From: a virus
Direction: 5' to 3' (one strand)
IMG/VR virus record: IMGVR_UViG_3300032116_000089
Span: 26,428-90,427 of that record
DNA length: 64,000 bases
Part shown: piece after piece, positions 48,767-62,660 of the stretch
Position numbering within the stretch: the first letter of the stretch is position 1
Layout: each line of letters begins with the position of its first letter
Position numbers and translations under genes: made by a program
The notes under the pieces: model-generated
What the model was told of the DNA's origin: nothing
Seen by the model: the letters and a program-made list of their open reading frames with translations, nothing else
Databases searched by the model: none

Positions 48767-48812
48767 GGGTGGGCCGCGTGTGACGTAAACCCTTGGTACG
48801 TATAGACTTACG
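48767..48812 (+). repeat. Composite repeat R1 (GC core + right palindrome)
   Basis: GGCCGC at 48772; CGTAAACCCTT-N7-ATAGACTTACG at 48784. Confidence 0.85.
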
Positions 48813-48878
48813 ACGAGTATGTGTGATGGGAATAGAGTATGCAGTGCATAGTATGTGTGCATGGTAAGATGGGTAAGG

Positions 48879-49046
48879 TGTTGCATAATGATACAATACC
48901 TCAATATCTCGGCCTAAAACACTAACGCAAAATGCTACACGCTGTAGCAAAATGCTACGCTCAATACCTAGGCACAAAAAATGTCATAGCGTTTTCCCCG
49001 AGAAATACGCACAAAAAAATAATCTATGCTTGGCACGGCGATTGCT
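48879..49046 (+). promoter_or_regulatory. sigma54 promoter with three upstream activator sites, copy 1
   Basis: TGGCAC-GGCGA-TTGCT at 49031; TGTAGCAAAATGCTACA-like boxes at 48879, 48923, 48943. Confidence 0.8.
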
Positions 49047-49079
49047 CTTATATATGGCATAAGAAAGAGAGAAAGAAAG

Positions 49080-49211
49080 ATGATTACGATGATTAAGATT
49101 ACCCAAAACACTACTGCTATGGTAAAGAATGGTAAGGTAATATACCTTATTCAGAATGGAAAGATTACCCAAGATCCTTTGAAGGTTCGATACTTTCAGA
49201 GGATGATCTGA
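49080..49211 (+). CDS. Small early protein (43 aa)
   Basis: Follows the sigma54 promoter and a purine-rich leader. Confidence 0.6.
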   Translation: MITMIKITQNTTAMVKNGKVIYLIQNGKITQDPLKVRYFQRMI

Positions 49212-49239
49212 ACCTTACGAAAGATTCAGAATCAAGCCC

Positions 49240-49267
49240 TTGACAACCAAAAGCCGATAAGTATAAT
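49240..49267 (+). promoter_or_regulatory. sigma70 promoter, first of about 20 (others at 49497, 49707, 50765, 51150, 51856, 52425, 53041, 53619, 53741, 54023, 54180, 55446, 57254, 58835, 59318, 60602, 60929, 61774, 62689, 62950)
   Basis: TTGACA-N16-TATAAT here; the others are mostly TTGAC(A/T)-N16/17-TA(G/T/C)AAT, often with extended -10 TG. Confidence 0.85.
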
Positions 49268-49290
49268 AGAGAAAGAAAGAGAAAAAGAAA

Positions 49291-49500
49291 ATGGAAAAGT
49301 CCACTACAGTTAACAGTTTCATCCGTTCCCTTCCGCCAGTTTACACGCACGATAATGTAGTGCATATGAAAAATGGCAAATCCTACAGGGTATACCGCTG
49401 CGGTTCCCTTGGTGCGGTTTACCGCTACATGCGTTCCCAAGGTTTCGATACTAACGACATTGTTAGGGTCGATCTGGTTCCCGCAAAAAATCGGGCTTGA
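49291..49500 (+). CDS. Small early protein
   Basis: Own promoter and leader. Confidence 0.7.
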   Translation: MEKSTTVNSFIRSLPPVYTHDNVVHMKNGKSYRVYRCGSLGAVYRYMRSQGFDTNDIVRVDLVPAKNRA

Positions 49501-49548
49501 CACCCTAGAAAAATCTGCTAGAATAAGAGAAAGAAAAGGAAAAAGAAA

Positions 49549-49710
49549 ATGAAGACTTGGACACAAGATCACCGATACATCGTTTGGACAGTGACTGAGG
49601 GTACGCGAAACCATTACGATCTATACGTTGGCGGTGTACTCAAGTACACTAATCTTCCATTCGAAGAGTTCTATCCTATCTACAAAAAAGAATGCGAAAA
49701 GGGGGCTTGA
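49549..49710 (+). CDS. Small early protein (53 aa)
   Basis: MKTWTQDHRY...; own promoter. Confidence 0.7.
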   Translation: MKTWTQDHRYIVWTVTEGTRNHYDLYVGGVLKYTNLPFEEFYPIYKKECEKGA

Positions 49711-49759
49711 CACCTAAAAGCAATACGCTACAATAGAATCAACACAAGGGAAAAAAGAA

Positions 49760-49909
49760 ATGACCATCCAAGTCCAAAACACTGTTCGCTGCCTAGTCGC
49801 CCGTCATGGATATTCGGCCACGTTCGTGCAGCACATGGGCGAAGGTATCGTGTTGTATAGCATCGGCGGTATCATGTACCGTATTCGTGGTGATGGTACG
49901 ATTCTCTAA
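49760..49909 (+). CDS. Small early protein (49 aa)
   Basis: MTIQVQNTVR...; own promoter. Confidence 0.7.
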   Translation: MTIQVQNTVRCLVARHGYSATFVQHMGEGIVLYSIGGIMYRIRGDGTIL

Positions 49910-49959
49910 GGTATTTGACAGGCCAGAATCCGATAAGTAAGAAAGAAAGAGAGAACCAA

Positions 49960-50190
49960 ATGAGAATCCCCAAAGAGTCAACCATTCGTCAAAATTTTCG
50001 TGCCTATGCCTACAAGGCTGGCTTCACGATCCTTCCGCAAACGAATGGCCTTTACAACGTGTTCGATAATCGCGTAGGCTATACCGTGAACCGGAATCGA
50101 ACCATGTGCGAAGTGGTGCGAATCATCATCGACGAAATGCACATGATCGAATACAACCGAAAGAATCGTTCCCCCGTTGTGGGGGCTTGA
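49960..50190 (+). CDS. Small early protein, paralog of 50560..50757
   Basis: Shared K.GF...G.Y...D...GY.V...VVR.I.DE..MIEYN.KNRS. Confidence 0.8.
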   Translation: MRIPKESTIRQNFRAYAYKAGFTILPQTNGLYNVFDNRVGYTVNRNRTMCEVVRIIIDEMHMIEYNRKNRSPVVGA

Positions 50191-50241
50191 CAACTGGAGT
50201 AGGGGGTGAAAGGGTGTACACCACTACTTAGGGGGGTTGCC

Positions 50242-50286
50242 GGGGGGCCGCATTCGACGTAAACCCTTACGCCACAAAGACTTACG
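50242..50286 (+). repeat. Composite repeat R2 (core + right palindrome)
   Basis: GGCCGC at 50246; palindrome at 50258. Confidence 0.85.
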
Positions 50287-50365
50287 ACGAGTAACGACGC
50301 AACTACAATGCCAAGGAATAAAAAAATCCTATGCTCACAGAATGGGCATGGTAAGATGGGTAACC

Positions 50366-50534
50366 CGTCGCAAAATGCTACACTACCATAGTTTCGCGGC
50401 TGAAATCGCTAACGCAAAATGATACAGTGTGTTGCAAAATGCTACGCTCAAAATCTAGGCACAAAAAATAGCATAGCGTTTTTCCCGAGGAAAACAGCAC
50501 TTCAGAATATTTCTGTATTGGCACACCGATTGCT
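50366..50534 (+). promoter_or_regulatory. sigma54 promoter with three upstream activator sites, copy 2
   Basis: TGGCAC-ACCGA-TTGCT at 50519; boxes at 50366, 50410, 50430. Confidence 0.8.
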
Positions 50535-50559
50535 CTATATAAGGGTAAAGAAAGAGAGA

Positions 50560-50757
50560 ATGAAAATGAAAAATCTGAAGATGGAAGCCGTGAAGGTTGG
50601 ATTCGTGCTGAGTAAGGATGCCAGTGGATTCTACCACCTGCACGATATCAAGATGGGTTACGATGTGCTGGTTACGGCTTTCCGTGCTAGCGTCGTTCGT
50701 GCCATTCAAGACGAAAAGGCGATGATCGAATACAACAAAAAGAATCGCTCCCTCTGA
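50560..50757 (+). CDS. Small early protein, paralog of 49960..50190
   Basis: Sequence similarity to the paralog; follows sigma54 promoter. Confidence 0.8.
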   Translation: MKMKNLKMEAVKVGFVLSKDASGFYHLHDIKMGYDVLVTAFRASVVRAIQDEKAMIEYNKKNRSL

Positions 50758-50820
50758 ATGGGGGTTGCGACGGCGGAAAAAGTTTCATACACTTCACCAA
50801 TCACCAAGAGGAAAAAGAAA

Positions 50821-51153
50821 ATGGCTACCAAGTTCAAGATCATCGAAGATGCAAAGCGTCAGGCTCGCATGTGCTTTTTGGGAATCGCAATCCCTCACCA
50901 ACCGCGACTCGCAAACGGCGAGTACGGTCCGATTCGTTCGGAAAAGATTCTCAAGTTCAATCGCAAGGCTCTGCGTCGTGGCCGATCTACCAAGATTGAA
51001 AGCGTGGACGGTCGTTTGATTGGCGGTGACGATACCATGATCGTAAAGGTTGGAAAGCCCGGTTCGTGTGAGCGTGTTGAGGCTTTGCGGTCACAGTACG
51101 AGTTGATCGCCGCCAGCGGTCACGAAGTGTCGCCGTTCAGTTTTGAGGGTTGA
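50821..51153 (+). CDS. Hypothetical basic protein
   Basis: GAGG RBS, promoter at 50765. Confidence 0.7.
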   Translation: MATKFKIIEDAKRQARMCFLGIAIPHQPRLANGEYGPIRSEKILKFNRKALRRGRSTKIESVDGRLIGGDDTMIVKVGKPGSCERVEALRSQYELIAASGHEVSPFSFEG

Positions 51154-51212
51154 CACCTAAAGTTTCATCCTGTAGAATACCGATATAAGAGAAGTAACCA
51201 AAAGGAAAGAAA

Positions 51213-51512
51213 ATGACTCACGCCGAAGCGACAAAGATGGTTTTGGGCAAGCGTAATCGTAGCCAGCGTAAGGTTGGAAATAATACCTACGCTTATATTG
51301 AATATGATGGAAGTGTGGCTATTGAGTTGCATGGCACTAAGGTAGTGGTTTTTTCTCCTAATGGTATGGTGAAGTTGAACAGTGGTGGATATCGCACCCA
51401 TACTACGAAAAAGAGAATCAACCAGTATAGCCCCGTGCGGGTTTATCAGAAAAACTTTGAGTGGTTTTTGAGTGATGGTACTCCGTTTGAAGATAACATT
51501 TTGGTTTCATAA
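51213..51512 (+). CDS. Hypothetical phage protein (LHGT...LNSGGY.T.TTK.RIN motif)
   Basis: Own promoter and RBS. Confidence 0.75.
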   Translation: MTHAEATKMVLGKRNRSQRKVGNNTYAYIEYDGSVAIELHGTKVVVFSPNGMVKLNSGGYRTHTTKKRINQYSPVRVYQKNFEWFLSDGTPFEDNILVS

Positions 51513-51527
51513 AGAAAGGGGCCACGG

Positions 51528-51629
51528 ATGGTCGATATAAACTGGGTGTGTGTAGGTGTGGGATTTGTTGCTGGCGTTGCTGGTTGTTGGCTTGTTTGTG
51601 ATCTTGTTTTTCCAGTGAAAAAGGACTGA
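51528..51629 (+). CDS. Tiny membrane peptide (33 aa)
   Basis: MVDINWVCVGVGFVAGVAGCWLVCDLVFPVKKD. Confidence 0.5.
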   Translation: MVDINWVCVGVGFVAGVAGCWLVCDLVFPVKKD

Positions 51630-51631
51630 CT

Positions 51632-51709
51632 ATGCGTACACTAGACAAAGTTACACTAGCGGTATCATTCGTGATCGGATGTATAGCGGCTTGGATCGTG
51701 AACAGTTGA
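51632..51709 (+). CDS. Tiny membrane peptide (25 aa)
   Basis: AAGGA RBS; MRTLDKVTLAVSFVIGCIAAWIVNS. Confidence 0.5.
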   Translation: MRTLDKVTLAVSFVIGCIAAWIVNS

Positions 51710-51756
51710 CGTAACTCTATATCTAACAAGGGTTTACGACGAGCGGGGCGGGCCGC
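51710..51756 (+). repeat. Composite repeat R3 (left palindrome + core)
   Basis: Palindrome at 51710; GCGGGGCGGGCCGC at 51743. Confidence 0.85.
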
Positions 51757-51766
51757 CGCCGATTTT

Positions 51767-51801
51767 TGGCATGGTATTTGCTAGTAGCAAGTCGTGTGCC
51801 A
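51767..51801. promoter_or_regulatory. Two face-to-face sigma54 -24/-12 motifs
   Basis: Plus strand TGGCAT-GGTAT-TTGCT (51767); minus strand TGGCAC-ACGAC-TTGCT (51801-51786). Confidence 0.65.
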
Positions 51802-51922
51802 AAAGTAGTCCGAATCCTGTCATCTTTTTAAGGAAAAATATTTGTAGGTTGGGGCTTGACATAGCCGATAATAGGTGTAGAATCAGAGCATGATGATTGA
51901 CAGCACCAACGGAGCGAATGCC

Positions 51923-52132
51923 ATGTACGAGTTTGATGATGTTGACCGTATCCTCGCTGAACTAGCCGAGCAGGGTACGCTTGAGCCGATGGCCGAGCCG
52001 ATTGATGAGCCTACGTGCCACCCGATGGATTGGGCCGAAGTCACGGGGCTGGCCGATGAGTTGGCCGATGAGATTTACCCCGAGCCGATTACGATGCTTG
52101 ACGAGGATGGTTTTGTATGGTATGTTTCTTGA
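51923..52132 (+). CDS. Small highly acidic protein
   Basis: D/E-rich; GGAG RBS; own promoter. Confidence 0.7.
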   Translation: MYEFDDVDRILAELAEQGTLEPMAEPIDEPTCHPMDWAEVTGLADELADEIYPEPITMLDEDGFVWYVS

Positions 52133-52145
52133 ATAGGAGAAAATC

Positions 52146-52415
52146 ATGAGTCACCCAGATCCCTGCTACGATCCCGATAACTCTTATGAGGATGATGAAA
52201 TGGCTACCCATTTTGATGATTACGAGTACGATTACCACGACGATTTCTATGGTGAGGATAGTTCGTCCTATCATCACGATGCTGATCATGAGGTTGAAAG
52301 CCAGTTTGATGATGATGTCTATGATGACAGTATGGACGGCGACCATGATTCCGCGATGGAATCCGCCGGTTGGGGAACGGATGAGGATTACGGTTACTAC
52401 GGGGAAGATTTCTAA
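52146..52415 (+). CDS. Extremely acidic Asp/Tyr-rich protein (ends SAGWGTDEDYG...)
   Basis: AGGAG RBS; no Lys or Arg. Confidence 0.75.
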   Translation: MSHPDPCYDPDNSYEDDEMATHFDDYEYDYHDDFYGEDSSSYHHDADHEVESQFDDDVYDDSMDGDHDSAMESAGWGTDEDYGYYGEDF

Positions 52416-52490
52416 AGTTGAGGCTTGACATTGGCCGATAACTAGTGTACAATGGTTGAAAAGGTTTACCCACTAAGGAGTTGATTAGGC

Positions 52491-52895
52491 ATGAATGATG
52501 CGTTTACGGTTGGTGTGATTGTTGCTTGTGCCGCTGCGGCGGTTGTTGTTTTCTTTCTCTATAACGTCTATAGGGGTGTGCATGATAGCCTTGCTAATGC
52601 TGTTATTGGTACTGTATATAACTTTCGATACTTCCAACCAGTGACCGGAACTTATGAAAGGTATCTTGCGAAGGTAGTTAGTATTCGTCACCTTGACCAT
52701 TGGGAACTTGGTAGGCTTGACTTTACTAGCGATTACCGTCGTAGTGACAAGAACTTCAAGCGTACACCTACGCTAGTTACGTGTCAGATGAGCGATGGTG
52801 AACACCGACAGTTCTACGCTGAACGTAGTGATATGTGCAAGCGTACACCGGTTGGTAACTTGCTTTATAACATGGGTGTAGCATACCTGTTCTGA
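52491..52895 (+). CDS. Membrane-anchored hypothetical protein
   Basis: N-terminal TM helix; own promoter. Confidence 0.7.
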   Translation: MNDAFTVGVIVACAAAAVVVFFLYNVYRGVHDSLANAVIGTVYNFRYFQPVTGTYERYLAKVVSIRHLDHWELGRLDFTSDYRRSDKNFKRTPTLVTCQMSDGEHRQFYAERSDMCKRTPVGNLLYNMGVAYLF

Positions 52896-52930
52896 TGTTC
52901 ACTAACTAACCCGATAACCTAGACCCTTCT

Positions 52931-53012
52931 CCTAAGTCCTTGCGGGCAAAGGAGTTAGGGCTAGGCGGGCGGGCCGCGTTCGCCGTAAGTCCTTACGCCA
53001 CAACACTTTACG
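52931..53012 (+). repeat. Composite repeat R4 (complete)
   Basis: Palindromes at 52931 and 52984 flanking GGCGGGCGGGCCGCG. Confidence 0.9.
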
Positions 53013-53049
53013 ACAAATCAAAAAATCTTTTATTTTCTGCTTGACAGGC

Positions 53050-53077
53050 TAAAGTTCCAATGGTAGAATGTCGATAA
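53050..53077 (+). promoter_or_regulatory. sigma28 (FliA/SigD)-like promoter motif (also 51158, 52413, 53750, 57242, 57490, 60938)
   Basis: TAAA-N16/17-(G/A)(C/T)CGATA, e.g. TAAAGTTCCAATGGTAGAATGTCGATAA. Confidence 0.6.
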
Positions 53078-53104
53078 TAGAAGTAGAAGAAAGAGAGTGA
53101 AAAG

Positions 53105-53326
53105 ATGAGTTGGAATGGTTATCGGATGAGTAGGGATATGTGGGGTAATGTGAGACACGAACATATCCATACTGGCTGGACTGTGACGTTCTCTATGGAT
53201 GGTAAGACTTGGACTTGGAAACTTGGGGCAAGGTATGCTACCAAGAGTGATGTTGAGCGTAAGGTTTTTAGCAAGTATCCGTCTGCTAGTAATATCCGTT
53301 GTAACAAGCATATTTGTGAGGTCTGA
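53105..53326 (+). CDS. Hypothetical protein
   Basis: Own promoter. Confidence 0.65.
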   Translation: MSWNGYRMSRDMWGNVRHEHIHTGWTVTFSMDGKTWTWKLGARYATKSDVERKVFSKYPSASNIRCNKHICEV

Positions 53327-53328
53327 AT

Positions 53329-53622
53329 ATGAACTGTAATAATCCCTATTATCCCTACTGGGTTAGCAATACCCTAAACTTTACCTACAATGGTAAGAAT
53401 GTTTGGGCGACTATTTTGGAGTTTGGCAAGGATTGGATAACTTGCATAACTAAGGATGGTTATAGGCGTTACAAGTGGAATAAAATGACTCCTCCTACGC
53501 TATACCAGTGCAGGGTGAGTGATTTGATTTTGCAATATGAAAGATATGGAAATAATGATTTTGAATATCTGTATCGATACTATGGGCCGTCAACGCCAAC
53601 GATTCAATGGAAAGAGGATTGA
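53329..53622 (+). CDS. Hypothetical protein
   Basis: GAGG RBS. Confidence 0.6.
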   Translation: MNCNNPYYPYWVSNTLNFTYNGKNVWATILEFGKDWITCITKDGYRRYKWNKMTPPTLYQCRVSDLILQYERYGNNDFEYLYRYYGPSTPTIQWKED

Positions 53623-53795
53623 CATAATGATATAGGGAGTTATACTATGTCAATATGGTATGAGTGAATACACTGCGAGGGGGATGTATCTCCCAAAGAA
53701 TGAAGATCGATGTTTTGCAGATAGTCAGCGTCAGTAGGGCTTGACAAACTAAACTTTTGAAGGTAGAATGTCGATACATACGCTAGGGGAACAGA

Positions 53796-54026
53796 ATGAA
53801 TATCTTTGGGACGTATACCAGTAAAGAGATAAAGAGCGTTATCAAGAAGCCATTTCATGAGTGGCCCGAAGATATCACTCTATATTTGCAGGACATTATG
53901 GCTGGCGAACTAATGGATCAGTGGCTAGAGACTCACTCTGACGAAGAATACGTAGAATACATTGAGAATATCGTAGAAGATCTGACCTCCCATATTGAGG
54001 ATAACGACGAAGATTTAGATAGTTGA
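53796..54026 (+). CDS. Small acidic protein
   Basis: Own promoter and RBS. Confidence 0.7.
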   Translation: MNIFGTYTSKEIKSVIKKPFHEWPEDITLYLQDIMAGELMDQWLETHSDEEYVEYIENIVEDLTSHIEDNDEDLDS

Positions 54027-54106
54027 CAACATACGGGTCTATGGTAGAATGATATCAAAGAAGCCATAGATAAAAGACAGTCGAGTATGGCAGACACCCG
54101 TATTTT

Positions 54107-54179
54107 GGGTCATTAGCTCAATCGGCAGAGCATCGGACTTTTAATCCGTTGGTTGTAGGTTCAAGTCCTACATGACCCA
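54107..54179 (+). tRNA. tRNA-Lys (UUU)
   Basis: Cloverleaf; anticodon loop CT-TTT-AA; T-loop TTCAAGT. Confidence 0.92.
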
Positions 54180-54241
54180 TTGACTTTTTCGTGTGTATAA
54201 AGTATAATAGATAAAACCATCCTCTAACCTCCCGGAATACT

Positions 54242-54388
54242 ATGTATAACGAAAACGTCATGAAGTGGTGCGGCCCTTACGATCAAGAAGAATACGAAGA
54301 ACTCATTGGCGATGATGAGCGAGATATCATCGTATATGATGACAGCAATGAGTGGTACAATATTTATGCTTCGGAGGCTGATGTTTGA
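54242..54388 (+). CDS. Small acidic protein (48 aa)
   Basis: Promoter at 54180; MYNENVMKWCGPYDQEE... Confidence 0.55.
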   Translation: MYNENVMKWCGPYDQEEYEELIGDDERDIIVYDDSNEWYNIYASEADV

Positions 54389-54475
54389 GTTACGGGATGT
54401 GGTCTGACCCTAGCCCATGCTAGACGTAGGACTGCCCTAGTGGTTTTGTGGGATTCCATTTTAAAAATCCCACTT

Positions 54476-54547
54476 GCCCGCATAGTATAAAGGCTATTAC
54501 AGTTGATTTGTAATCATCGGATGAGGGTTCGATTCCTTCTGTGGGCT
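54476..54547 (+). tRNA. tRNA-Thr (UGU)
   Basis: GCCCGCA/TGTGGGC acceptor; loop TT-TGT-AA. Confidence 0.88.
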
Positions 54548-54556
54548 TTGATTGAT

Positions 54557-54629
54557 TGCCCGGTAGCTTAACTGGCAGAGCAAGGGATTTTGGTTCCCTC
54601 GGTTGTAGGTTCGAATCCTACTCGGGCAT
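54557..54629 (+). tRNA. tRNA-Gln (UUG)
   Basis: AGGGA-TT-TTG-GT-TCCCT anticodon arm; TTCGAAT T-loop. Confidence 0.9.
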
Positions 54630-54689
54630 TTACGGTTCGAATCTTTAGGCTCAGTTGGTGTATAATACTATACCAAAGGAGATTTAAAG

Positions 54690-55124
54690 ATGAAAATGAA
54701 AGAACAAATATTAGAACTAAAAGCACAAGGTTATTCTTACAGAGATATACAAGCAAAACTTGGATGTTCCAAAGGAACAATAGCGTATCATGTAGGTATA
54801 GGTCAAAAAGATAAAACTCAAAATAGAACCAAAGAATATAGAACAAAGGTTAAAAGATACATACAAGAGTATAAGTCTGGTAAAAGATGTGCTGATTGTG
54901 GAGAGGATTATCCATACTGGCTATTAGAGTTTGATCATACTAGAGATGATAAAAGTTTTAATATATCAGAGTTCTCTCAACACACTATAGCATTAGAAAA
55001 AATTAAAGAAGAAATAAGTAAGTGTGACGTTGTATGTTGCAACTGCCATAGAAATAGAACATTTATGAGACAAACTAACGACGCTAGATATGTAGGTATA
55101 GAATTTTGTAAGTATCCAGAATAA
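54690..55124 (+). CDS. HTH-HNH endonuclease (putative homing endonuclease) in the tRNA cluster
   Basis: SYRDIQAKLGCSKGTIAYH HTH; CADC...FDH...CCNCH. Confidence 0.85.
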   Translation: MKMKEQILELKAQGYSYRDIQAKLGCSKGTIAYHVGIGQKDKTQNRTKEYRTKVKRYIQEYKSGKRCADCGEDYPYWLLEFDHTRDDKSFNISEFSQHTIALEKIKEEISKCDVVCCNCHRNRTFMRQTNDARYVGIEFCKYPE

Positions 55125-55129
55125 CGTGA

Positions 55130-55201
55130 ACACAGGTAGCATAATGGTAATGCCCCAAACTGTTAATTTGTCAGATGTAGGTTCGAATCCTACCCTGTGT
55201 G
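55130..55201 (+). tRNA. tRNA-Asn (GUU)
   Basis: ACACAGG/CCTGTGT acceptor; loop CT-GTT-AA. Confidence 0.85.
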
Positions 55202-55205
55202 CTTT

Positions 55206-55277
55206 GGCCCCATCTTCTAACGGTTAGGAAATCGGATTTTCGCTCCGAGAATCAGGGTTCGATTCCCTGTGGGGTCA
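55206..55277 (+). tRNA. tRNA-Glu (UUC)
   Basis: TCGGA-TT-TTC-GC-TCCGA. Confidence 0.9.
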
Positions 55278-55280
55278 TTT

Positions 55281-55354: not shown

Positions 55355-55363
55355 TTATCTTGT

Positions 55364-55411
55364 CGTAAGTCCTTATCTATCAAGTATTTAGGAATAGCGG
55401 GGCGGGCCGCG
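55364..55411 (+). repeat. Composite repeat R5 (left palindrome + core)
   Basis: Palindrome at 55364; core at 55397. Confidence 0.85.
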
Positions 55412-55496
55412 AATCCTATGCCAAAGATTTTCTCAAGATTTCCCCTTGACTGTGCCGATGTATAGTGTAGAATCGGTGAACACAAGGGAGAGAATC

Positions 55497-56201
55497 ATGA
55501 AAGTTGCAAACGGTAATGACAAGTTGGGCAAGGGTTGTTTGGTCGTTTCTAGGCCAGTTGGTGATACTTGTCCGTCAACGTGTGCATTTTTGGGTAACGG
55601 TTGCTATGCAGAGCAAACCGAGAAAATGTATCCTAACGTGCGTCCTGCTGGTATGCAGAATGTTATCACTGAGCGTGGGCGTATTCGCTCCATGATTCTG
55701 GACGCTATTCGTCAAGGAAAATCTATTCGTTGGCATGAGCGTGGCGATTGGTTTCTTGACGGTAAACTGGATATGGATTATGTGAACAATGTTATTTGGG
55801 CTTGTGATAGCATTGTGAGCGAAGGTAAGATTCTGCCCGATATGTGGTTTTATACCCATATCTACGACGCTAGACTTGTGGCTATGGAAAAGTATATGGC
55901 GGTCTATGCTAGTGTGCATAACGCTAATGACAAGGCTACGGCATCACTCGCCGGATTCAAACTGTTCGCATGGTGCGATAGCGATGAGAAGATTGCGAAG
56001 AAACGCCCCAAGCGTAAAAACCTTGCCGATGCTTGGCGTAAGAGTCTGCCCAAACTTGTGATTCTCGACGGCGAGAAGTTTATCACTTGCCCCGAAATCC
56101 GTCGTGGTCGCGGCGTTGTGACTTGCACTCCGACGAAGGGTAGTGTAGACTGTAATCTGTGCGTCAAGGGTTTGGCTAACGTGTTGTTTCCATCACACTG
56201 A
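55497..56201 (+). CDS. Gp88-like (Fe-S/radical-SAM-like) phage protein
   Basis: N.KL, TCP..C....CYA, RWHERGD, WFYTH and C-terminal CP...C...C..C. Confidence 0.7.
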   Translation: MKVANGNDKLGKGCLVVSRPVGDTCPSTCAFLGNGCYAEQTEKMYPNVRPAGMQNVITERGRIRSMILDAIRQGKSIRWHERGDWFLDGKLDMDYVNNVIWACDSIVSEGKILPDMWFYTHIYDARLVAMEKYMAVYASVHNANDKATASLAGFKLFAWCDSDEKIAKKRPKRKNLADAWRKSLPKLVILDGEKFITCPEIRRGRGVVTCTPTKGSVDCNLCVKGLANVLFPSH

Positions 56202-56208
56202 GGATAAG

Positions 56209-56427
56209 ATGAAAGTTTTTACATACGATTGTGTTACGCTTGCCGATGTTTGTGAGCAGAACACTCTAGATTATGGTCATGTTATAGAGGAAATATCCCA
56301 TAGTGATATTTCATTTGGCACTAACGAGGATACCTTGATTAGCAAGAGTATGCTTGAACAAGTATTAGATATTACTATTGACTTTGGTGGTCTGGACGAT
56401 ACCGTACTTATTAGCCTTGGGAGTTGA
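56209..56427 (+). CDS. Small acidic protein
   Basis: GAGG RBS. Confidence 0.65.
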   Translation: MKVFTYDCVTLADVCEQNTLDYGHVIEEISHSDISFGTNEDTLISKSMLEQVLDITIDFGGLDDTVLISLGS

Positions 56428-56429
56428 CG

Positions 56430-56936
56430 ATGTATACTATTGTAAAGAAGCGTAGCGGTGCTGGTTGTGCATCATCGTTTTATAAACTCAAGGGTAAGAA
56501 AAATCGTGGGTTTAAAATCTTCCAATCCAAAGAAGATGCAGAGATTGCCCATACTAATCAAGTAGAACTGTCAATGTATAATCTAGCCCCGTATGTTTAT
56601 AGTCAAGTCGGTCGTGTTCGTAAGAGTGATAAGAGTCTAACTGGCTGGGGATATGTTACAGAAATCGCGGAACTAATCTGCTGCCCCGGTAATGGTTGCT
56701 ACTGTTGTGATCGTGAAGAACTAGAAGATGAATATTGTGATGAGATGAGCAATCTAGTTTGCAATATGGAAGAATATGGATTTAGTTTTGGAGATAATCA
56801 CGCTGGCAATGTTGGATTTGTAAATCGTGATGGTCATAAGGTGATGGTATGTATTGACACTGGAGATGAAAGCGTAGTAAACGAAAATAGGTGTTTTTGC
56901 ATCACTTGCAGAAAAGGCGGTTGCTGCCATGAGTAA
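56430..56936 (+). CDS. Minimal protein-kinase-like protein
   Basis: GAGC loop, GFKIF Lys, APYVY, DNHAGN catalytic loop, IDTG. Confidence 0.7.
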   Translation: MYTIVKKRSGAGCASSFYKLKGKKNRGFKIFQSKEDAEIAHTNQVELSMYNLAPYVYSQVGRVRKSDKSLTGWGYVTEIAELICCPGNGCYCCDREELEDEYCDEMSNLVCNMEEYGFSFGDNHAGNVGFVNRDGHKVMVCIDTGDESVVNENRCFCITCRKGGCCHE

Positions 56937-57156
56937 GTATTACATTAAGTCTAACACGCTAGAACTTATCTACTCTACAGATAAAACTCCCCTTGAGGCT
57001 GCGATTGTAGCACTAGGTGAGACTAACAAGTTTGACGTATTAGATGAACATTTTTACATTGACGAGCGTGGTATGAAAGACTACGTTACAGCACTTCCCG
57101 ATACTATTGTAATCCCCACTAAACTAGTGGCAGCAGAAGCCGGTTGGACGATGTGA
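56929..57156 (+). CDS. Hypothetical protein
   Basis: Coupled ORF. Confidence 0.65.
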   Translation: MSKYYIKSNTLELIYSTDKTPLEAAIVALGETNKFDVLDEHFYIDERGMKDYVTALPDTIVIPTKLVAAEAGWTM

Positions 57157-57238
57157 CGTAAACCCTTGTAGCCATTAGGGTTACGGCGAACGGGGCCGGG
57201 GAGATTTGACGTAAACCCTTATCAAATATAGACTTACA
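57157..57238 (+). repeat. Composite repeat R6 (complete, divergent core)
   Basis: Palindromes at 57157 and 57210. Confidence 0.85.
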
Positions 57239-57300
57239 ACCTAAAGTTTTTTCTTGACTGTGCCGATAGGTATGGTATGATAGTTGCATAGGAGACACGT

Positions 57301-57492
57301 ATGTATATTTGGAGAGTTTGGAAAGATAATCGGTTTGCGGGGTATGTATCGTCCCCTAGTCAGTTTGATGCATACGTGAAGGCCCGAGATGAGTTTGGGC
57401 AAAATGTGTGGGTTGAGCGGACTGTGCAATATGCAGTGGTGTACCACCCAAATAATCAAGATCATTTTGTGAGAGATAGTCAGCCAGCCTAA
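57301..57492 (+). CDS. Hypothetical protein
   Basis: AGGAG RBS, own promoter. Confidence 0.7.
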   Translation: MYIWRVWKDNRFAGYVSSPSQFDAYVKARDEFGQNVWVERTVQYAVVYHPNNQDHFVRDSQPA

Positions 57493-57524
57493 AGTTTCTG
57501 AGCAGGAATGTCGATAATCCTTAT

Positions 57525-57872
57525 ATGAAAAAGGAGACAGGCATCATGATTCAATGGATTGGCGTGATCATTACGATTTGCGGTCTGGTGTATACGGGAA
57601 TAAAAGATGTTCAAACTGGCGTGATAAAAATACCTACGTTATCGCAAAACGAGGTATTGACAAAAACAAACTATCCAATACAATACTGTCTGATGGCTTA
57701 CGATCCTAACACTGACAAAGTTTACTATCAACACGAAAACGGTATATGGTATGATTACCCTCCACAACAACGACGATATGCGGCCACGCCGCAACGTAAT
57801 CAAAATCAAGAAAGTTATGCCGTGGGAAATGCGGCAGGGACACCAAGAACACAAGTTTACGGTGTTCGATAA
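57525..57872 (+). CDS. Membrane-anchored hypothetical protein
   Basis: TM segment; sigma28-like motif upstream; start may be 57546. Confidence 0.55.
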   Translation: MKKETGIMIQWIGVIITICGLVYTGIKDVQTGVIKIPTLSQNEVLTKTNYPIQYCLMAYDPNTDKVYYQHENGIWYDYPPQQRRYAATPQRNQNQESYAVGNAAGTPRTQVYGVR

Positions 57873-57928
57873 TCGCCCCAAGCGACAGCGTACCCGTAGG
57901 GATATTGAACGTCAATGGCGGAATGAAT

Positions 57929-58354
57929 ATGACTCCTAAACCATTACATGGCGAAGTTCGTTTCCACCTGAGTAGGGGCGAACATTATATGCACTGGCAA
58001 GTAAAAGTCATGCAGGGTAGAAAGAAAGTTGATGTATATTATTACGATCCTAATGAGTATCAGTTAGAGATGCGGGGTTGTAAGTTGATAAACAAGCCAA
58101 ACAAGGCTAAACAAGTATTTGAGGCTGGAGTTCATGATGTGAGCGGTTGGGTAAAGTGTGACGAAGTGATGCTTCGCAAAACATTTTATCCAAAGTTGCC
58201 TATTGACAATCTTGAAAAGGTGTTCTATAATCCTATTCGTGATCCACACTGGCGACGAGAGAGTGACTCTAACGAGTTTGTGTGGGACGATAGCGAGTAT
58301 GCTACTTTACTAACTGACGGCAAACAAGTCTACATTTTGGAAGAAAGAGTCTAA
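57929..58354 (+). CDS. Hypothetical protein
   Basis: Long ORF with plausible composition. Confidence 0.7.
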   Translation: MTPKPLHGEVRFHLSRGEHYMHWQVKVMQGRKKVDVYYYDPNEYQLEMRGCKLINKPNKAKQVFEAGVHDVSGWVKCDEVMLRKTFYPKLPIDNLEKVFYNPIRDPHWRRESDSNEFVWDDSEYATLLTDGKQVYILEERV

Positions 58355-58355
58355 T

Positions 58356-58838
58356 ATGCCTAACTGGTGCATGAACAATATAACGGTTTCTCACGCTGAT
58401 CCTGCTAAAGTGCAGGAGTTTGCTGATGCCTATAACTCAGGGAATACATGTGACCACTATCTTCCGTGTCCTAAAGACAAGGATGGTAAGATTATTATGG
58501 ACGAGAGTAGTCCAGACTATTGGTACAAGTGGTGCATAAATAACTGGGGTGTCAAGTGGGACTTTGGTAAGGATGAGTATGGTGACTCTGCTGTTGTTGT
58601 AGATAATGAAGTATCTGTATCATTCAATACCGCTTGGGCACCGCCTAATGGTTTGTATGATGAGTTGCACCGTCAAGGATACATTCTAAATGGTTCGTAT
58701 TGGGAACCCGGAATGGGATTCTGCGGCACCATTGAAAATGGCATGGATTTGTATGTGGAATATAGAGACAAGGAAGAAATCCCCGATCATTTGTGGGATG
58801 AGTATGGCATGGCAGATTTTTTTGAGGAAATGGCTTGA
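58356..58838 (+). CDS. DUF1281/YubB-like ferredoxin-fold protein
   Basis: MPNWC.N...WY.W...NWGVKWD...F.TAWAPP...EPGMGFCG. Confidence 0.8.
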   Translation: MPNWCMNNITVSHADPAKVQEFADAYNSGNTCDHYLPCPKDKDGKIIMDESSPDYWYKWCINNWGVKWDFGKDEYGDSAVVVDNEVSVSFNTAWAPPNGLYDELHRQGYILNGSYWEPGMGFCGTIENGMDLYVEYRDKEEIPDHLWDEYGMADFFEEMA

Positions 58839-58867
58839 CAAGCCGAAAATAGAGTGTAGAATACAAG

Positions 58868-59312
58868 AGTCGCAAGCAAGTGGTAATCGGGAATGAATGA
58901 AATCCAGCCGGTTGGTCATTCCTGACACTCGCTGCCGTTGCTCATATGTTTGTCCGAGTATGAGTACCGATAAAACGCTAAGACTTAGCAAGTCTATCGG
59001 CTACAATACAAACTTACGTGTGGTAGTTGCTACTACTAGAGAGATAGCCCAGCAAACAGCGTCTGCATCTAATGGGTGTATGGGGTTGCCGACCTAGGCT
59101 ATGGGAAGGCTCATGCTGCTCTCTATTGGGTTGGATTCCCGACACACGATTTAATACAACCAGTAATCGTTTCCAAGAGCCAGATGAATCATATAGCATA
59201 GCGCAGTGTGAAAGATTCTAGAGAGGTTTCCGTGGGCGGTTTCCATCCGATCCCGACAAGGGGCAATCGTATGGGTTATAGGAATCGGGGCGTAAAAGAT
59301 TCCGCTGGTTTT
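58868..59312 (+). ncRNA. Putative structured ncRNA(s) including a tRNA-like domain
   Basis: Follows promoter 58835; no ORF with RBS; dense nested stems. Confidence 0.55.
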
Positions 59313-59351
59313 TCTTATTGACAGACTGATAACTAATGGTATAATGAGAAT

Positions 59352-59528
59352 ATGAAAACTGAAACCCTTGAACTTACTAAGACTGAACTTGAATATCTAT
59401 ACAATGTTGTAGATGACCATATTCGTTCTGGTATTTACTGGGGCAAAAAAGAAAACTTTGAAAGTCTGCAAAAGAAAGTATTTGATAAGGTAGAAGAAGC
59501 ATACGACATACTCTGTGAGCAATCATAA
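59352..59528 (+). CDS. Hypothetical protein (58 aa)
   Basis: Directly after promoter 59318 (probably near-leaderless). Confidence 0.6.
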   Translation: MKTETLELTKTELEYLYNVVDDHIRSGIYWGKKENFESLQKKVFDKVEEAYDILCEQS

Positions 59529-59782
59529 TGGAATGGATTAGTTTCTTCGGTCCTCGTCGCCCTATTAACGGGCAGAAAGTTTACTACTTTGGTGAATACA
59601 TTGGCGTGTGGCAAGGGCGGTATGAGATTCATCGTGATGATCCAGTAAGTGAACATATCTTGATTTGTGAAGAAAGTCCCGGTATAGTAGATCGTATGGA
59701 TGCTCCGTGGTGGATGCCATATGAGGGACAACCAAAACCGCAACGACCAGAAAGTGATTACCCAAAGGATTATCCAAAATGA
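59528..59782 (+). CDS. Hypothetical protein (MEWIS...P.RP...WWMP; DUF551-like)
   Basis: Coupled ORF. Confidence 0.65.
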   Translation: MEWISFFGPRRPINGQKVYYFGEYIGVWQGRYEIHRDDPVSEHILICEESPGIVDRMDAPWWMPYEGQPKPQRPESDYPKDYPK

Positions 59783-59937
59783 AACTGGTACTATATGCTG
59801 TTTGCTGGAAAGAAGATGGAGATACGGTTGATCCTCAATGGGTTTTTCGCACACGCGAAGAAGCACAAGAAGTTATTGATGATTGTTATGGTAGAGGAGT
59901 AATCGTAGAACTATTCAAGAAAGAAAATAATGACTGA
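59779..59937 (+). CDS. Hypothetical protein (52 aa)
   Basis: ATGA coupling. Confidence 0.55.
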   Translation: MKLVLYAVCWKEDGDTVDPQWVFRTREEAQEVIDDCYGRGVIVELFKKENND

Positions 59938-60103
59938 AGAGCGTGAAAAGGCTATGATTTATCTTCTTAGTTTTTTCAAGAATAGAATGGCCGCTGTAAA
60001 TAAGCATAACGTAGATAAGGCTAAAGAGTTGATTGGATTACATGAAATATCAGTAAGTGAACTGATTAATAAGTACGTGGAACTGGTCTACAAAAACTCT
60101 TAA
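59930..60103 (+). CDS. Hypothetical protein (57 aa)
   Basis: Overlapping operon ORF. Confidence 0.55.
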   Translation: MTEEREKAMIYLLSFFKNRMAAVNKHNVDKAKELIGLHEISVSELINKYVELVYKNS

Positions 60104-60114
60104 TAGGAAATAAA

Positions 60115-60489
60115 ATGATTAATGTCAAACTGACCGTTCGTGAGGCTACGTGGATTCTCTCCAAGATTGAGTCCTACGACACGATCTATGACAAGATTGT
60201 GGCAGGGATTGAGGACGCTATTGGTGTGAATCGTCACAAGACCGTTACCATCACTGGCGGTATGACCTTTGACAACCGTATTCCTTGTATCAAGGCTATT
60301 CGTCTCAACACTGGTTGGGGCTTGAAGGAAGCCAAGGATTGGAGCGACGTTCTGGTGGGAACGTGGGATGATGCTGGTCGAAGGCTCAAGGGTGCCAGCC
60401 GTCACAGCATGACCCTCAAGACTCCAGAAGCGGCTGAGAACCTCTTGCGTGATCTGGTGGGTTTGGGGTGCGAAGGTTTTCTCTCTTGA
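60115..60489 (+). CDS. Ribosomal protein bL12 (L7/L12) C-terminal-domain-like protein
   Basis: RIPCIKAIRLNTGWGLKEAKDWSD matches the L12 KI.VIK.VR..TGLGLKEAKDLVE motif. Confidence 0.75.
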   Translation: MINVKLTVREATWILSKIESYDTIYDKIVAGIEDAIGVNRHKTVTITGGMTFDNRIPCIKAIRLNTGWGLKEAKDWSDVLVGTWDDAGRRLKGASRHSMTLKTPEAAENLLRDLVGLGCEGFLS

Positions 60490-60571
60490 TCTAAGTCCTT
60501 GCCCACTAAGGATTTAGAACCAAGGGGGCGGGCCGCGTTCGCCGTAAGTCCTTATCCCACAACGACTTATG
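60490..60571 (+). repeat. Composite repeat R7 (complete)
   Basis: Palindromes at 60490 and 60543; core GGGGCGGGCCGCG at 60525. Confidence 0.9.
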
Positions 60572-60677
60572 AGGAATAAATATTTTTTCAAGGAACAGGG
60601 GTTGACAGGACGATATACTATGGTAGAATGATTGAAGTAACGGGTTGATAACACTAACACTTGTAAGGAGTTTGATT

Positions 60678-60932
60678 ATGCAGAAGTATACGTTTGTGGT
60701 TGATGTGGTTTCGGATTCGGCTATCGACGCGAACACGGTTCGTGCTTCGCTGCTGGAGACTGTGGATGGTATCGGTACGATTGCTGCCGTGCATCCGGCG
60801 AAGGTTGATTCGCTCAAGGAGCAGGGCTTCAAGGTTTGGCGGGCAAGGGTTGCTGGTATCAAGGAACCGGCCAAGGTCAAGGCTCCCAAGGCCAAGAAGG
60901 TCGAGGCCGAGGTTGCTACGGCGACCGCTTGA
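60678..60932 (+). CDS. Small protein with Lys/Ala/Pro-rich tail
   Basis: TAAGGAG RBS, own promoter. Confidence 0.75.
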   Translation: MQKYTFVVDVVSDSAIDANTVRASLLETVDGIGTIAAVHPAKVDSLKEQGFKVWRARVAGIKEPAKVKAPKAKKVEAEVATATA

Positions 60933-61019
60933 TTTTCTAAAGATTGTCTGCTAGAATGTCGATACTGGTGAAGTAGTAGTAGCCAGTATCCATTCTAGCC
61001 CACTAACTAGGAGATTACA

Positions 61020-61376
61020 ATGGGTTTGGATCAGTTTGCATTTGCTATCGACAACAATGGAGAAAAGGAAGAACTCGCCTGCTGGCGTAAGCATCCTAAT
61101 CTTCAAGGTTGGATGGAACGGTTGTGGGAAAACAAGGGTTACCCTAACGCCCACGATAATGATAACTCTTTCAACTGTGTTGAACTTGAACTGACTAAGA
61201 GAGATTTGGACGATCTGGAACGGGCTGTTACTAATGGTACGTTACCGGCTACGGTTGGATTTTTCTTTGGTAGTAATAGCGATGCTGTTTACGGACAGCA
61301 GGACTTGGAGTTTATCAAGAAAGCCAGAGAGGCACTTGACAGCGGACTGACCGTAGTGTATGATAGTTGGTGGTGA
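61020..61376 (+). CDS. Hypothetical phage protein (MGLD...WRKH...YDSWW motifs)
   Basis: AGGAG RBS; recognisable phage-family motifs. Confidence 0.8.
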   Translation: MGLDQFAFAIDNNGEKEELACWRKHPNLQGWMERLWENKGYPNAHDNDNSFNCVELELTKRDLDDLERAVTNGTLPATVGFFFGSNSDAVYGQQDLEFIKKAREALDSGLTVVYDSWW

Positions 61377-61401
61377 CATTTCGACAACCATGAGGAACGA
61401 T

Positions 61402-61542
61402 ATGAAGATTCTTGGATTGGGCGATGAGACTGATGCTGGCAAGGTTGTTCGCATTGGTCGTGATGGTGTGACATTTGAGAAGAATGGTGCGAAGGTTGTG
61501 TTGACCCTCGCTGATGTTGAGTCGATGGTTTTTTCTAACTAA
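61402..61542 (+). CDS. Small hypothetical protein
   Basis: GAGG RBS. Confidence 0.6.
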   Translation: MKILGLGDETDAGKVVRIGRDGVTFEKNGAKVVLTLADVESMVFSN

Positions 61543-61547
61543 GGGAG

Positions 61548-61766
61548 ATGATAATGTCTAATAACTTTGCTAGCCTTCGTAAGAACCGCCATATCAAGTG
61601 CAAGTATCCACTGCATGGCAGCAAGAACGTGCTGAAGTATCACGTTGGTCGCATTGAACGTGTTGGTACTGGCCCTAATGGTCGATATGCCGTGGTTCGT
61701 GCCGTTGATCAGACGGTGCGTACCCTTCTGTGCGATAAGATGATCGAAACGAAGTGCTATCGTTGA
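61548..61766 (+). CDS. Small basic protein
   Basis: GGGAG RBS. Confidence 0.65.
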   Translation: MIMSNNFASLRKNRHIKCKYPLHGSKNVLKYHVGRIERVGTGPNGRYAVVRAVDQTVRTLLCDKMIETKCYR

Positions 61767-61823
61767 TTCTCCCTTGAGTGTACGGGTGGCGTATGGTACA
61801 ATGCTATGCGTCACCCGTATCAT

Positions 61824-61899
61824 GGGGCGTAAGGTAAGCCGGTTGCATCCGACACTCTTATAAGGTGTTCATAGGTACGTTCGACTCGTACACGCCCTA
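61824..61899 (+). tRNA. tRNA-Ile (UAU)
   Basis: GGGGCGT/ACGCCCT acceptor; ACACT-CT-TAT-AA-GGTGT; GTACG-TTCGACT-CGTAC; own promoter; atypical D arm. Confidence 0.8.
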
Positions 61900-62050
61900 C
61901 TGTTCTTTTTCTGTAACAGCCTAGGGAGATCACTTGATAGAACTTATGATTATGATTATTGTGTGGAGTATGTTGAACCAAGACTAATAAATCGGAATAG
62001 TTTGACTTATAAAGTAACCAATATTCCCCCAAACATTTAGAGGTAAACAT

Positions 62051-62263
62051 ATGAACGAACTGATAGCCACCTATGTTATGGATGATGTACGCTATGATAT
62101 TTATGCGTGTTATGATTCTGCTGATGATATGGATACTCGTAATGTATCTTTCTATGACGTTTACAACCAAAAGACGGGAGCGTGTGTGAACGAGGGCGAT
62201 CCTTGGGAAACCATGCCAACGTGGAATGAGATTTTTCATACCTATTACTCACCGGTGAAATAA
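62051..62263 (+). CDS. Hypothetical protein
   Basis: GAGGT RBS. Confidence 0.7.
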   Translation: MNELIATYVMDDVRYDIYACYDSADDMDTRNVSFYDVYNQKTGACVNEGDPWETMPTWNEIFHTYYSPVK

Positions 62264-62421
62264 TGAATACTAAAATGCAAAATAAGATAAACGAGTTTCT
62301 TGATGGTTGGTATAAGACGGAAGATGATTGTATGTTTGATATTAACGACTATAATGATTGGATGAATGAAGCAGTTGAGTTGCTAGAAGAAATAGTTGGT
62401 CGCGTTAGAGAGGAAAGTTGA
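62263..62421 (+). CDS. Small acidic protein (52 aa)
   Basis: TAATG coupling. Confidence 0.55.
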   Translation: MNTKMQNKINEFLDGWYKTEDDCMFDINDYNDWMNEAVELLEEIVGRVREES

Positions 62422-62423
62422 GC

Positions 62424-62606
62424 ATGTACCACTACGTTACTATTGAAGTTGTTATGCGTAACTGTAAATCAGCAGAGGATGCTAAACAAAAATGCGAAAG
62501 ACTGTTACCATATAAGCCAGACGAGAACTGTACATATATGGAATCGTGGGAAATAACTAGGTCCGCATCACCATTTGCCGTAAGTCCTTTGCCACCAAAG
62601 GTTTAG
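62424..62606 (+). CDS. Hypothetical protein
   Basis: GAGG RBS; 3' end runs into repeat R8. Confidence 0.55.
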   Translation: MYHYVTIEVVMRNCKSAEDAKQKCERLLPYKPDENCTYMESWEITRSASPFAVSPLPPKV

Positions 62607-62660
62607 GACCGACGCGGCCCGCCCCGCTCGTCGTAAGTCCTTATCTACCAACAACTTACG
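62579..62660 (-). repeat. Composite repeat R8 (complete, inverted)
   Basis: Core CGCGGCCCGCCCCGC at 62613; palindromes at 62579 and 62632. Confidence 0.9.

Follow-up and report, generated by a model that had tools for sequence, protein, structure and literature searches.

What a repeated composite of palindromes does among the early genes of an uncultured phage is the question raised by IMG/VR virus record IMGVR_UViG_3300032116_000089. We analyzed a stretch of 64,000 nucleotides from this record (positions 26,428 to 90,427; hereafter the window), which is the right-hand 64 kb of a 90.4-kb record rated 57% complete. The original prediction, made from the letters of the window alone, had described eight copies of an 82-bp element (hereafter the module) in which two imperfect palindromes surround an asymmetric core, and had proposed that it organizes a higher-order nucleoprotein platform around a directional factor. 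After comparison with related phages, a protein platform on double-stranded DNA remains the best reading, because the spacing of the module is conserved, pairing between its arms is not preserved, and crossover sites are unlikely, whereas the directional factor found no support. More specifically, we give an even chance to the possibility that the module, judged from its sequence, is a cis-acting double-stranded DNA docking site for one or more sequence-specific proteins and heads early transcription units.

The module is composed of two 29-bp near-palindromes with centers 53 bp apart, which amounts to about five helical turns and places both on the same face of the helix. It comprises three dyad-symmetric sub-sites, namely the two palindromes (half-site CGTAAGTCCTT, with a strict 7-bp gap) and, between them, a 24-bp GC-rich center that is lineage specific. 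A pattern search of IMG/VR with the core and right arm matched 73 stretches, most of which contained true copies, many on contigs of 150-229 kb. Five of these relatives are complete or nearly complete (94-100%) at about 150-229 kb; each has 7-15 cores, and their module copies are confined to a single early region of about 15-22 kb per genome. From the clade loci we gathered a comparative set of 108 non-identical full composites, with the orientation of every copy assigned by local GC skew; the early genes of the window all lie on the + strand, which is G-rich. The predicted spacing proved to be conserved in relatives: a distance search using only the invariant palindrome skeleton (TAA, TT, AA, TTA), with the core ignored, placed 83 of 85 distinct neighboring palindrome pairs at 53 bp and the other two at 54 bp. 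The palindrome arms and the core are also more conserved than the flanking genes, while the loops vary.

Within the window, all 12 palindrome starts and all core positions were found exactly where they had been placed. Five palindromes fit the 11-7-11 consensus at ≤3 mismatches (0 in 100 shuffles), and six cores fit theirs at ≤2 mismatches (0.11 expected). The 53-bp distance between starts is exact in the four complete copies (52931, 57157, 60490, and 62579), and in copies 1-5 and 7 the GGCCGC of the core is found 41 bp downstream of the left start and/or 12 bp upstream of the right one, while that of copy 8 occupies the mirror position (35/18) on the opposite strand. Copies follow one another at 1221-3333 bp, in agreement with the claimed 1.2-3.3 kb, and the virion module is free of them as predicted: strong half-sites (score ≥14.8) all fell within 48784-62650, and a half-site matrix built from all arms detected none in the other 76 kb of the contig. 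All eight copies were confirmed, but eight is a lower bound, as a ninth lies past the end of the window in L068, a 12.3-kb contig from another sample that is 99.3-99.9% identical and reaches 8.1 kb further (L068:1-8126). This ninth composite has an inverted center and lies about 0.6 kb past position 64000, with no further composite after it. The single copy described as inverted (copy 8) is indeed inverted, but only in its central ~24 bp rather than as a whole element. Palindrome quality is uneven, as the palindrome at 51710 pairs at 7/11 positions, the one at 57157 shows a slip of 1 nt, and pairing is poor in the promoter-side palindromes. The eight copies are as follows.

Copy 1, 48766..48812, + strand: half module, with core TGGGTGGGCCGCG (48766-48778) and promoter-side palindrome (48784-48812); no left palindrome.
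Copy 2, 50242..50286, + strand: half module, with degenerate core GGGGGGCCGCA and palindrome (50258-50286).
Copy 3, 51710..51757, + strand: weak left palindrome (51710-51738, 7/11 paired) and core (51745-51757).
Copy 4, 52931..53012, + strand: complete, with palindromes 52931-52959 and 52984-53012 and core 52966-52978.
Copy 5, 55364..55411, + strand: left palindrome (55364-55392) and core (55399-55411); no right palindrome.
Copy 6, 57157..57238, + strand: complete, with degenerate center GGGGCCGGGGAG and palindromes 57157-57185 and 57210-57238.
Copy 7, 60490..60571, + strand: complete, with palindromes 60490-60518 and 60543-60571 and core 60525-60537.
Copy 8, 62579..62660, + strand: complete, with the ~24-bp center inverted, palindromes 62579-62607 and 62632-62660, and core CGCGGCCCGCCCC (62613-62625).

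The half module of copy 1 and the AGATAAAACCCCCC tract upstream of it are conserved in relatives L007, L015, L025, L032, and L052, and copy 2 belongs to a ~300-bp duplication of the copy 1 region. In copy 3, the right palindrome is replaced by a T-run plus a TGGCAT-N5-TTGCT dyad, likewise in L007, L025, L032, L041, L044, and L045. Copy 4 is followed by a 28-bp A/T-rich tract and then a sigma70 promoter (53041-53069), and copy 7 by a 30-bp A/T-rich tract and a promoter at 60602-60629. The left palindrome of copy 5 begins 9 nt past a tRNA-Asp gene, with a sigma70 promoter at 55446-55473; same-lake contigs of relatives seem to have a complete copy at this locus, judging from joints (55409>62625 and 62662>55483) present in three sequencing runs. 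Another raw-read run, X21, gave almost zero coverage. The promoter of copy 6 (57254-57281) lies just 15 bp downstream. Open reading frames (ORFs) stop immediately upstream of copy 6 (56929-57156) and copy 7 (60115-60489). The palindromes of copy 8 retain their usual polarity, with a promoter 28 bp downstream (62689-62716), and its orthologue is inverted in L005, L012, L013, L017, L030, L034, and L070.

Across the clade, the module is positioned at the upstream edge of early transcription units, with the left palindrome abutting or overlapping the stop codon of the preceding gene. In 32 of the 80 copies for which an upstream ORF is recognizable, its stop codon falls ≤4 nt from the left palindrome or is supplied by the TAA of that palindrome. 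On the downstream side, 75 of the 108 copies have a sigma70 -35/-10 pair within 160 bp, and in 41 of the 108 the right palindrome stops 27-31 bp short of the -35 box (28 bp, n=24; 29 bp, n=12), leaving a gap occupied by an A/T-rich tract resembling an UP element. In this commonest arrangement, the sub-sites are located near -78, -100, and -131. Minor gap classes occur near 18, 39, 50, and 61 bp, the 50-bp class being due to the insertion of a TGGCAY-N5-TTGCW motif in either orientation. No co-directional gene lies upstream of the half module that is conserved where the early region starts, which ties the core and right palindrome to downstream features and not to termination. If proteins do dock on the module, dimers at the two palindromes would bridge across the center and thereby set the activity of the adjacent strong sigma70 promoter, which could entail either a timed shut-off or a boosting of early genes. 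The same bridged complex may also insulate this promoter from transcription arriving from upstream and, as a side effect, the repeated modules would offer patches of homology where gene cassettes differ between relatives.

The early sigma70 promoters also share a CGATA motif (GCCGATA/GTCGATA) at a fixed place, either in the spacer or just past the -10 box (53039-53076, 55445-55495, 57253-57303, 60927-60964, and 62688-62738), pointing to an additional regulatory site or to promoters of a special class. Adjoining the start of the early region is a gene for a 173-aa sigma70-family factor (47267-47788, - strand) in which region 2 was detected; it is conserved in four of the five complete relatives.

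The same location between a stop codon and a promoter would suit a cassette of the promoter-early stem-loop (PeSL) type, which is the main rival. In such a cassette, the palindromes and the GC-rich center would act in RNA as hairpins that terminate or attenuate transcription of the upstream gene block or stabilize its 3' ends, and the promoter would restart transcription. Known PeSLs join a G/C-tract stem-loop, an AT-rich tract, and a sigma70 promoter (PMC2839356). Besides the contact with upstream stop codons, canonical terminators are scarce in the early region, copy 3 and its relatives exhibit a GC hairpin and T-run directly after the core, and the left palindrome (-8.8 to -11.3 kcal/mol) folds better in the sense than in the antisense strand in 75 of the 108 copies. 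The changes accumulated in the arms tell against a hairpin, however. For every variable arm pair, observed pairing was at or below the level implied by column composition. In the left palindrome, for example, positions 6/24 hold G,T and A,C 39 times each, G,C 15 times, and A,T never, compared with expectations of ~32 for G,C and ~15 for A,T, while perfect palindromes are absent on both the left (0/108, ~10 expected) and the right (0/108, ~4 expected). Transitions are equally frequent in the two arms; each produces a wobble pair in one strand and an A-C mismatch in its complement, and neither strand is favored. The arm changes are thus not merely non-compensatory but anti-compensatory, and a transcribed hairpin, the outcome that the original prediction had itself set against its platform, is unlikely.

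Several further properties are difficult to reconcile with RNA signals. The promoter-side palindrome forms a poor hairpin in the sense strand (-4.4 to -5.2 kcal/mol); it folds better in antisense, whereas the left palindrome folds slightly better in sense, and this opposite preference is a signature of an overall dyad in DNA. The fold of the center is no better than that of shuffles, and fold z-scores of whole copies range from -2.7 to +0.9. Both palindromes are A/U-rich and neither is followed by the U-tract of an intrinsic terminator, the only T-run being that of the copy 3 core hairpin; nor do terminators need an exact 53-bp or N7 spacing, and the conserved half module lacks an upstream co-directional gene whose transcript it could end. 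An Rfam scan of the 48-64 kb interval returned tRNAs only and no family matching the module. Overall, we judge a PeSL-type terminator-promoter cassette to be an unlikely, though serious, explanation.

The center provides another line of evidence, as its ~24 bp are inverted in place about the exact midpoint in 31 of the 108 copies (29%), whereas the asymmetry of each palindrome with respect to transcription is retained. A dyad site in DNA can tolerate such an inversion, which an RNA signal would accommodate less easily. The inner arms form 11-bp inverted repeats, and template switching or recombination involving these explains the flip. Orthologous copies have the same center orientation in several relatives. 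Center types within the clade include GGGCGGGCCGC, TTTTCGGCGCAAAA, and GGCCGGGCGCCGGGCC, and sister lineages carry a different, roughly palindromic center (examples are AATTTTCGGCGCAAAATT and GGCCGGGCGCCGGGCC) while retaining the 53-bp distance. A core that is flipped in 29% of copies, and whose place other sequences take in sister lineages, cannot serve as a fixed polar signal, so the directional factor of the original prediction is not supported.

A number of observations weigh against the docking of regulatory proteins at the module. In the window, a module accompanies just 8 of the roughly 25 strong early promoters, and one third of the 108 copies have no sigma70 promoter within 160 bp. 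With the main class removed, promoter distances show a weak 10.5-11 bp periodicity (p about 0.02-0.04), drawn from copies that are not independent. The left palindrome does constitute a moderate sense-strand hairpin just after stop codons, and given this a role for it in RNA is possible. The pattern of one good half-site per palindrome could stem partly from two ancestral palindrome types rather than from selection. Furthermore, no candidate binding protein emerged from the gene searches, and no gene family or Pfam domain was found to recur beside the palindrome in other phages.

In the search for a binder, the predicted likeness to IHF sites held only in part. The exact match TATCAAGTATTTA is present at 55378, but the full consensus WATCAANNNNTTR occurs in just 12 of the 108 copies; the resemblance consists mostly of the palindrome skeleton AA-N4-TTA, and the WATC is usually missing. 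The five complete relatives encode no HU/IHF and no ParB. Comparison of the early ORFs of the window with Pfam and PHROGs revealed no clear regulator, the only candidate being a homing endonuclease with helix-turn-helix (HTH) and HNH domains. This 144-aa ORF (54690-55124, + strand) combines an N-terminal resolvase/transposase-type HTH with an HNH endonuclease domain and is situated within the tRNA cluster; relative G001 lacks the segment, in keeping with a homing endonuclease. A number of other candidate signals were dropped for lack of fit: a DnaA box inside the right palindrome, CIRCE, HAIR, BirA and TyrR boxes, boxA/nut, ops, Chi/KOPS in the core, anticodon-loop mimicry, a Shine-Dalgarno (SD)/anti-SD hairpin, and CRISPR-repeat mimicry.

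Enhancer-like upstream activator sites were also considered, as a sigma54-like motif (TGGCAY-N5-TTGCW) follows the core or right palindrome, in either orientation, in about a quarter of the copies, including window copy 3. Paired palindromes 80-150 bp upstream of a promoter are typical of activator sites. Nevertheless, this is the least probable of the explanations weighed here. Both the sigma54 activator AAA+ domain (PF00158) and sigma54 itself (PF04552) are absent from the five complete relatives, most copies are followed by sigma70 promoters, the motif shows no enrichment around the palindromes of other phages (3 loci), and it is often a face-to-face dyad, which is odd for promoters. The dyad takes the form TGGCAT GGTAT TTGCT AGT AGCAA GTCGT GTGCC. 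In the window, motifs of this type lie beside composites at 51766-51800 and 55418-55430 (reverse), and they are also found in relatives L041, L007, L040, and L052.

The flanking palindrome is not limited to this clade. In its perfect form, TAAGTCCTT-N7-AAGGACTTA, it was present in 77 IMG/VR stretches, compared with 5 for a reversed control of the same composition, and when gaps of 2-16 were allowed, 77 of 94 matches had exactly N7, with about one for each other gap length. Approximately 10 of the 77 loci belong to this clade and the rest are from about 60 unrelated phage contigs with a G+C content of 31-66%; in one T4-like contig, the palindrome follows the gp23 stop codon. By comparison, the perfect palindrome was found in just 1 of 401 genomes of one bacterial phylum. 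The palindrome is therefore phage-specific, as well as geometrically rigid and conserved in sequence rather than structure. Its occurrence in ~60 unrelated phage contigs and nearly never in bacterial chromosomes suggests a shared, undescribed phage-specific recognition system. We tentatively propose, with less confidence than we place in the docking role itself, that (Y)(R)TAAGTCCTT-N7-AAGGACTTA(Y)(R), of 25-29 bp, may be a recognition site widely shared among aquatic phages and read by a single conserved protein or machine, from which this clade would have built a phased three-part switch before its early promoters. If so, discovery of the reader would reveal a common and undescribed layer of phage gene control or DNA handling.

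Some of these other phages point instead to sites of replication or DNA entry, such as iteron-like initiator sites or pause sites for the fork or for entering DNA. In 11 loci of other phages, the palindrome lies at a fixed distance from the DnaA box TTATCCACA, which is 23-fold enriched within 300 bp, and a 600-bp stretch of one contig contains eight palindromes, resembling an iteron array. The injection-stop region of T5 is likewise rich in palindromes and DnaA boxes. However, clade copies are spread between genes over 14-22 kb, and no DnaA box was noticed in the copy listings, although the composites were not scanned for it. For the module, then, a role in replication or entry is highly doubtful. 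As to the details of these loci, in another phage group (L203, L206, L216, L241, L262, and L263) a perfect DnaA box comes after the palindrome at a constant distance of 5 bp (AAGGACTTA-AAAAG-TTATCCACA), and the unit of palindrome and box is repeated at several intergenic places per contig. The cluster of eight perfect palindromes (L255:4303-4871, on an unrelated 38.8-kb phage contig) is irregularly spaced, has a sigma54-like motif adjacent, and looks like an iteron-type array.

The 11-7-11 geometry had been likened to that of tyrosine-recombinase sites, while the variable spacers had been taken to argue against classical crossover sites, and both points stand. With a gap of strictly 7, the palindrome fits the arms and spacer of a tyrosine-recombinase core site, as do half-site centers 16-18 bp apart. 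Sites I and II of Tn3/gamma-delta res lie 53 bp from center to center. Moreover, the whole element can fold like attC (outer stem, unpaired spacers, inner stem, and variable loop), and its center occurs in both orientations. We nonetheless regard it as very improbable that the modules are site-specific recombination sites for the capture or inversion of cassettes, whether of the tyrosine-recombinase core, folded integron attC-like, or resolvase res-like kind. Spacers differ between all window copies and among the 108 composites, and gene order is largely collinear between relatives. The five complete relatives contain neither tyrosine recombinase (PF00589, 0/5, with 14/14 positive controls detected, a host enzyme being possible) nor the serine recombinase (PF00239, 0/5) that a res site would call for. 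The attC R-box GTTRRRY is likewise absent, and the 24-bp invertible segment is too short for inversion by an enzyme, whereas the flanking 11-bp inverted arms explain the flip.

The prediction that the elements may shuffle DNA found mixed support. The window and relative G001 are collinear in gene order at 70-87% identity, and their homology ends at 52976, inside the copy 4 core, and restarts at 60492 and 62581, among the first bases of copies 7 and 8. Thus, three homology breaks coincide with element edges, and contigs of same-lake relatives join at copies 5, 6, and 8, although some of these joints are alignments to paralogous copies. In contrast, none of four indels between 99%-identical strains occurs at an element. 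Cassette differences at modules appear to be real but modest, like those at T4 PeSLs. The window segments left unaligned by these strains are 50861-50968, 56299-56376, and 57032-57067 (three gaps of 36-108 bp relative to L058) and 61008-61256 (249 bp missing from L068), all of them away from composites.

These breaks and joints also bear on whether the copies might be selfish or neutral palindromic repeats that spread within or between phage genomes and serve chiefly as homology patches for cassette exchange, in the manner of repetitive extragenic palindromic (REP) sequences and bacterial interspersed mosaic elements (BIMEs) or of miniature inverted-repeat transposable elements (MITEs). The mosaic of palindrome, asymmetric motif, and palindrome recalls BIMEs, half copies and in-place flips exist, and the bare palindrome is found in unrelated phages. 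Yet we think this quite unlikely, given that the copies occur strictly within the early region and in phase with promoters, that their arms and core outconserve the flanking genes while the loops vary, and that the four strain-level indels lie away from them. The five complete relatives also lack the REP-associated tyrosine transposase (RAYT)/Y1 transposase (PF01797, 0/5), and host chromosomes show no such family. A scan of 185,579 species genomes yielded chance matches plus three small mis-binned contigs of metagenome-assembled genomes (MAGs) with contradictory taxonomy. Because genome scans gave nothing beyond chance matches and mis-binned phage fragments, the module is not a host repeat family.

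The phage itself occurs in freshwater and lake metagenomes, among them X3, X10, and X11, and the public runs listed for it include no RNA data set. No cultured relative was found: cultured phages contain no DNA near-identical to the window, a short-word search with the composite yielded chance matches only, and the terminase shares just 26% identity with those of Bacillus phages. Clade phage fragments have been binned in MAGs labeled Planktophila, Planctomycetaceae, and Alphaproteobacteria (L109, L118/L180, and L186; G008 contigs). The Planctomycetaceae MAG holds six clade contigs, and G008 contigs C238, C413, C596, C598, C712, and C1039 are named among the binned fragments, which represent either mis-binning or a hint of the host. 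The late module of the window, all on the - strand, encodes a 2361-aa tape-measure protein (149-7234), a ClpP-like protease (42947-43585), an ERCC4-type nuclease (43585-44085), and a GDP-mannose 4,6-dehydratase (44534-45622).

In large uncultured phages, early regions are mostly unreadable and consist of small orphan genes; here, the module marks the heads of early transcription units. It thus offers a ready bait in the search for regulators and a marker of early regions in metagenomic phage contigs. In addition, comparative data alone can test a palindrome against a hairpin reading, and in this case the changes run against pairing.

The original prediction did not recognize the module as a described element. 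This holds for its sequence and three-part geometry, which are absent from the searchable literature (a search for the motif words returned unrelated primers only), but not for its kind, as PeSLs are a described analogue. These cassettes of T4-type phages (Arbiol et al. 2010, PMC2839356; Comeau et al. 2014, PMC4122927) are, by analogy, the closest counterpart of the module. Both are composite intergenic motifs repeated many times per genome among small early genes, both join a G/C-rich symmetric element, an AT-rich tract, and a strong sigma70-like promoter, and the gene content of relatives varies at PeSLs, as it appears to do at some modules. However, the stem-loops of PeSLs are terminators of variable position, whereas the module has three sub-sites at exact 53-bp and N7 spacing, arms conserved in sequence rather than pairing, no U-tract, a center that flips, and a flanking palindrome shared with unrelated phages, and it accompanies only about one third of early promoters.

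The stoperators of cluster A mycobacteriophages, which are bound by the L5 gp71 repressor, similarly place many copies of a short operator in short intergenic gaps, and a protein roadblock or transcription regulator is a plausible action common to both. Unlike the module, with its paired palindromes and center restricted to the early region, stoperators are single 13-bp asymmetric sites that are oriented with transcription, distributed genome-wide, and served by a known repressor. Enterobacterial BIME/REP sequences share with the module the two imperfect palindromes around a short asymmetric motif and a location just after genes. BIME-1/RIP elements bind IHF and BIME-2 elements bind gyrase, whereas the IHF consensus is seen in few module copies, and REPs are host-chromosome families mobilized by RAYT, for which the five relatives and the host scan gave no counterpart. 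The sites dif and loxP have the same 11-7-11 geometry, and the distance between res sites I and II is also 53 bp; even so, the module differs from all of these in its non-identical spacers, its lack of sequence likeness, and its presence in phages (the five relatives) devoid of a recombinase gene. With regard to position, rrnB P1 likewise combines a strong promoter, an A/T-rich UP tract, and phased upstream sites, with Fis bound near -71, -102, and -143, and both the phi29 p4/p6 switch complex and the module may bridge dimers at inverted repeats to control early promoters; these two analogies are of position only, with no sequence likeness. We regard the module as a novel form of a type of regulatory cassette already known between phage genes.

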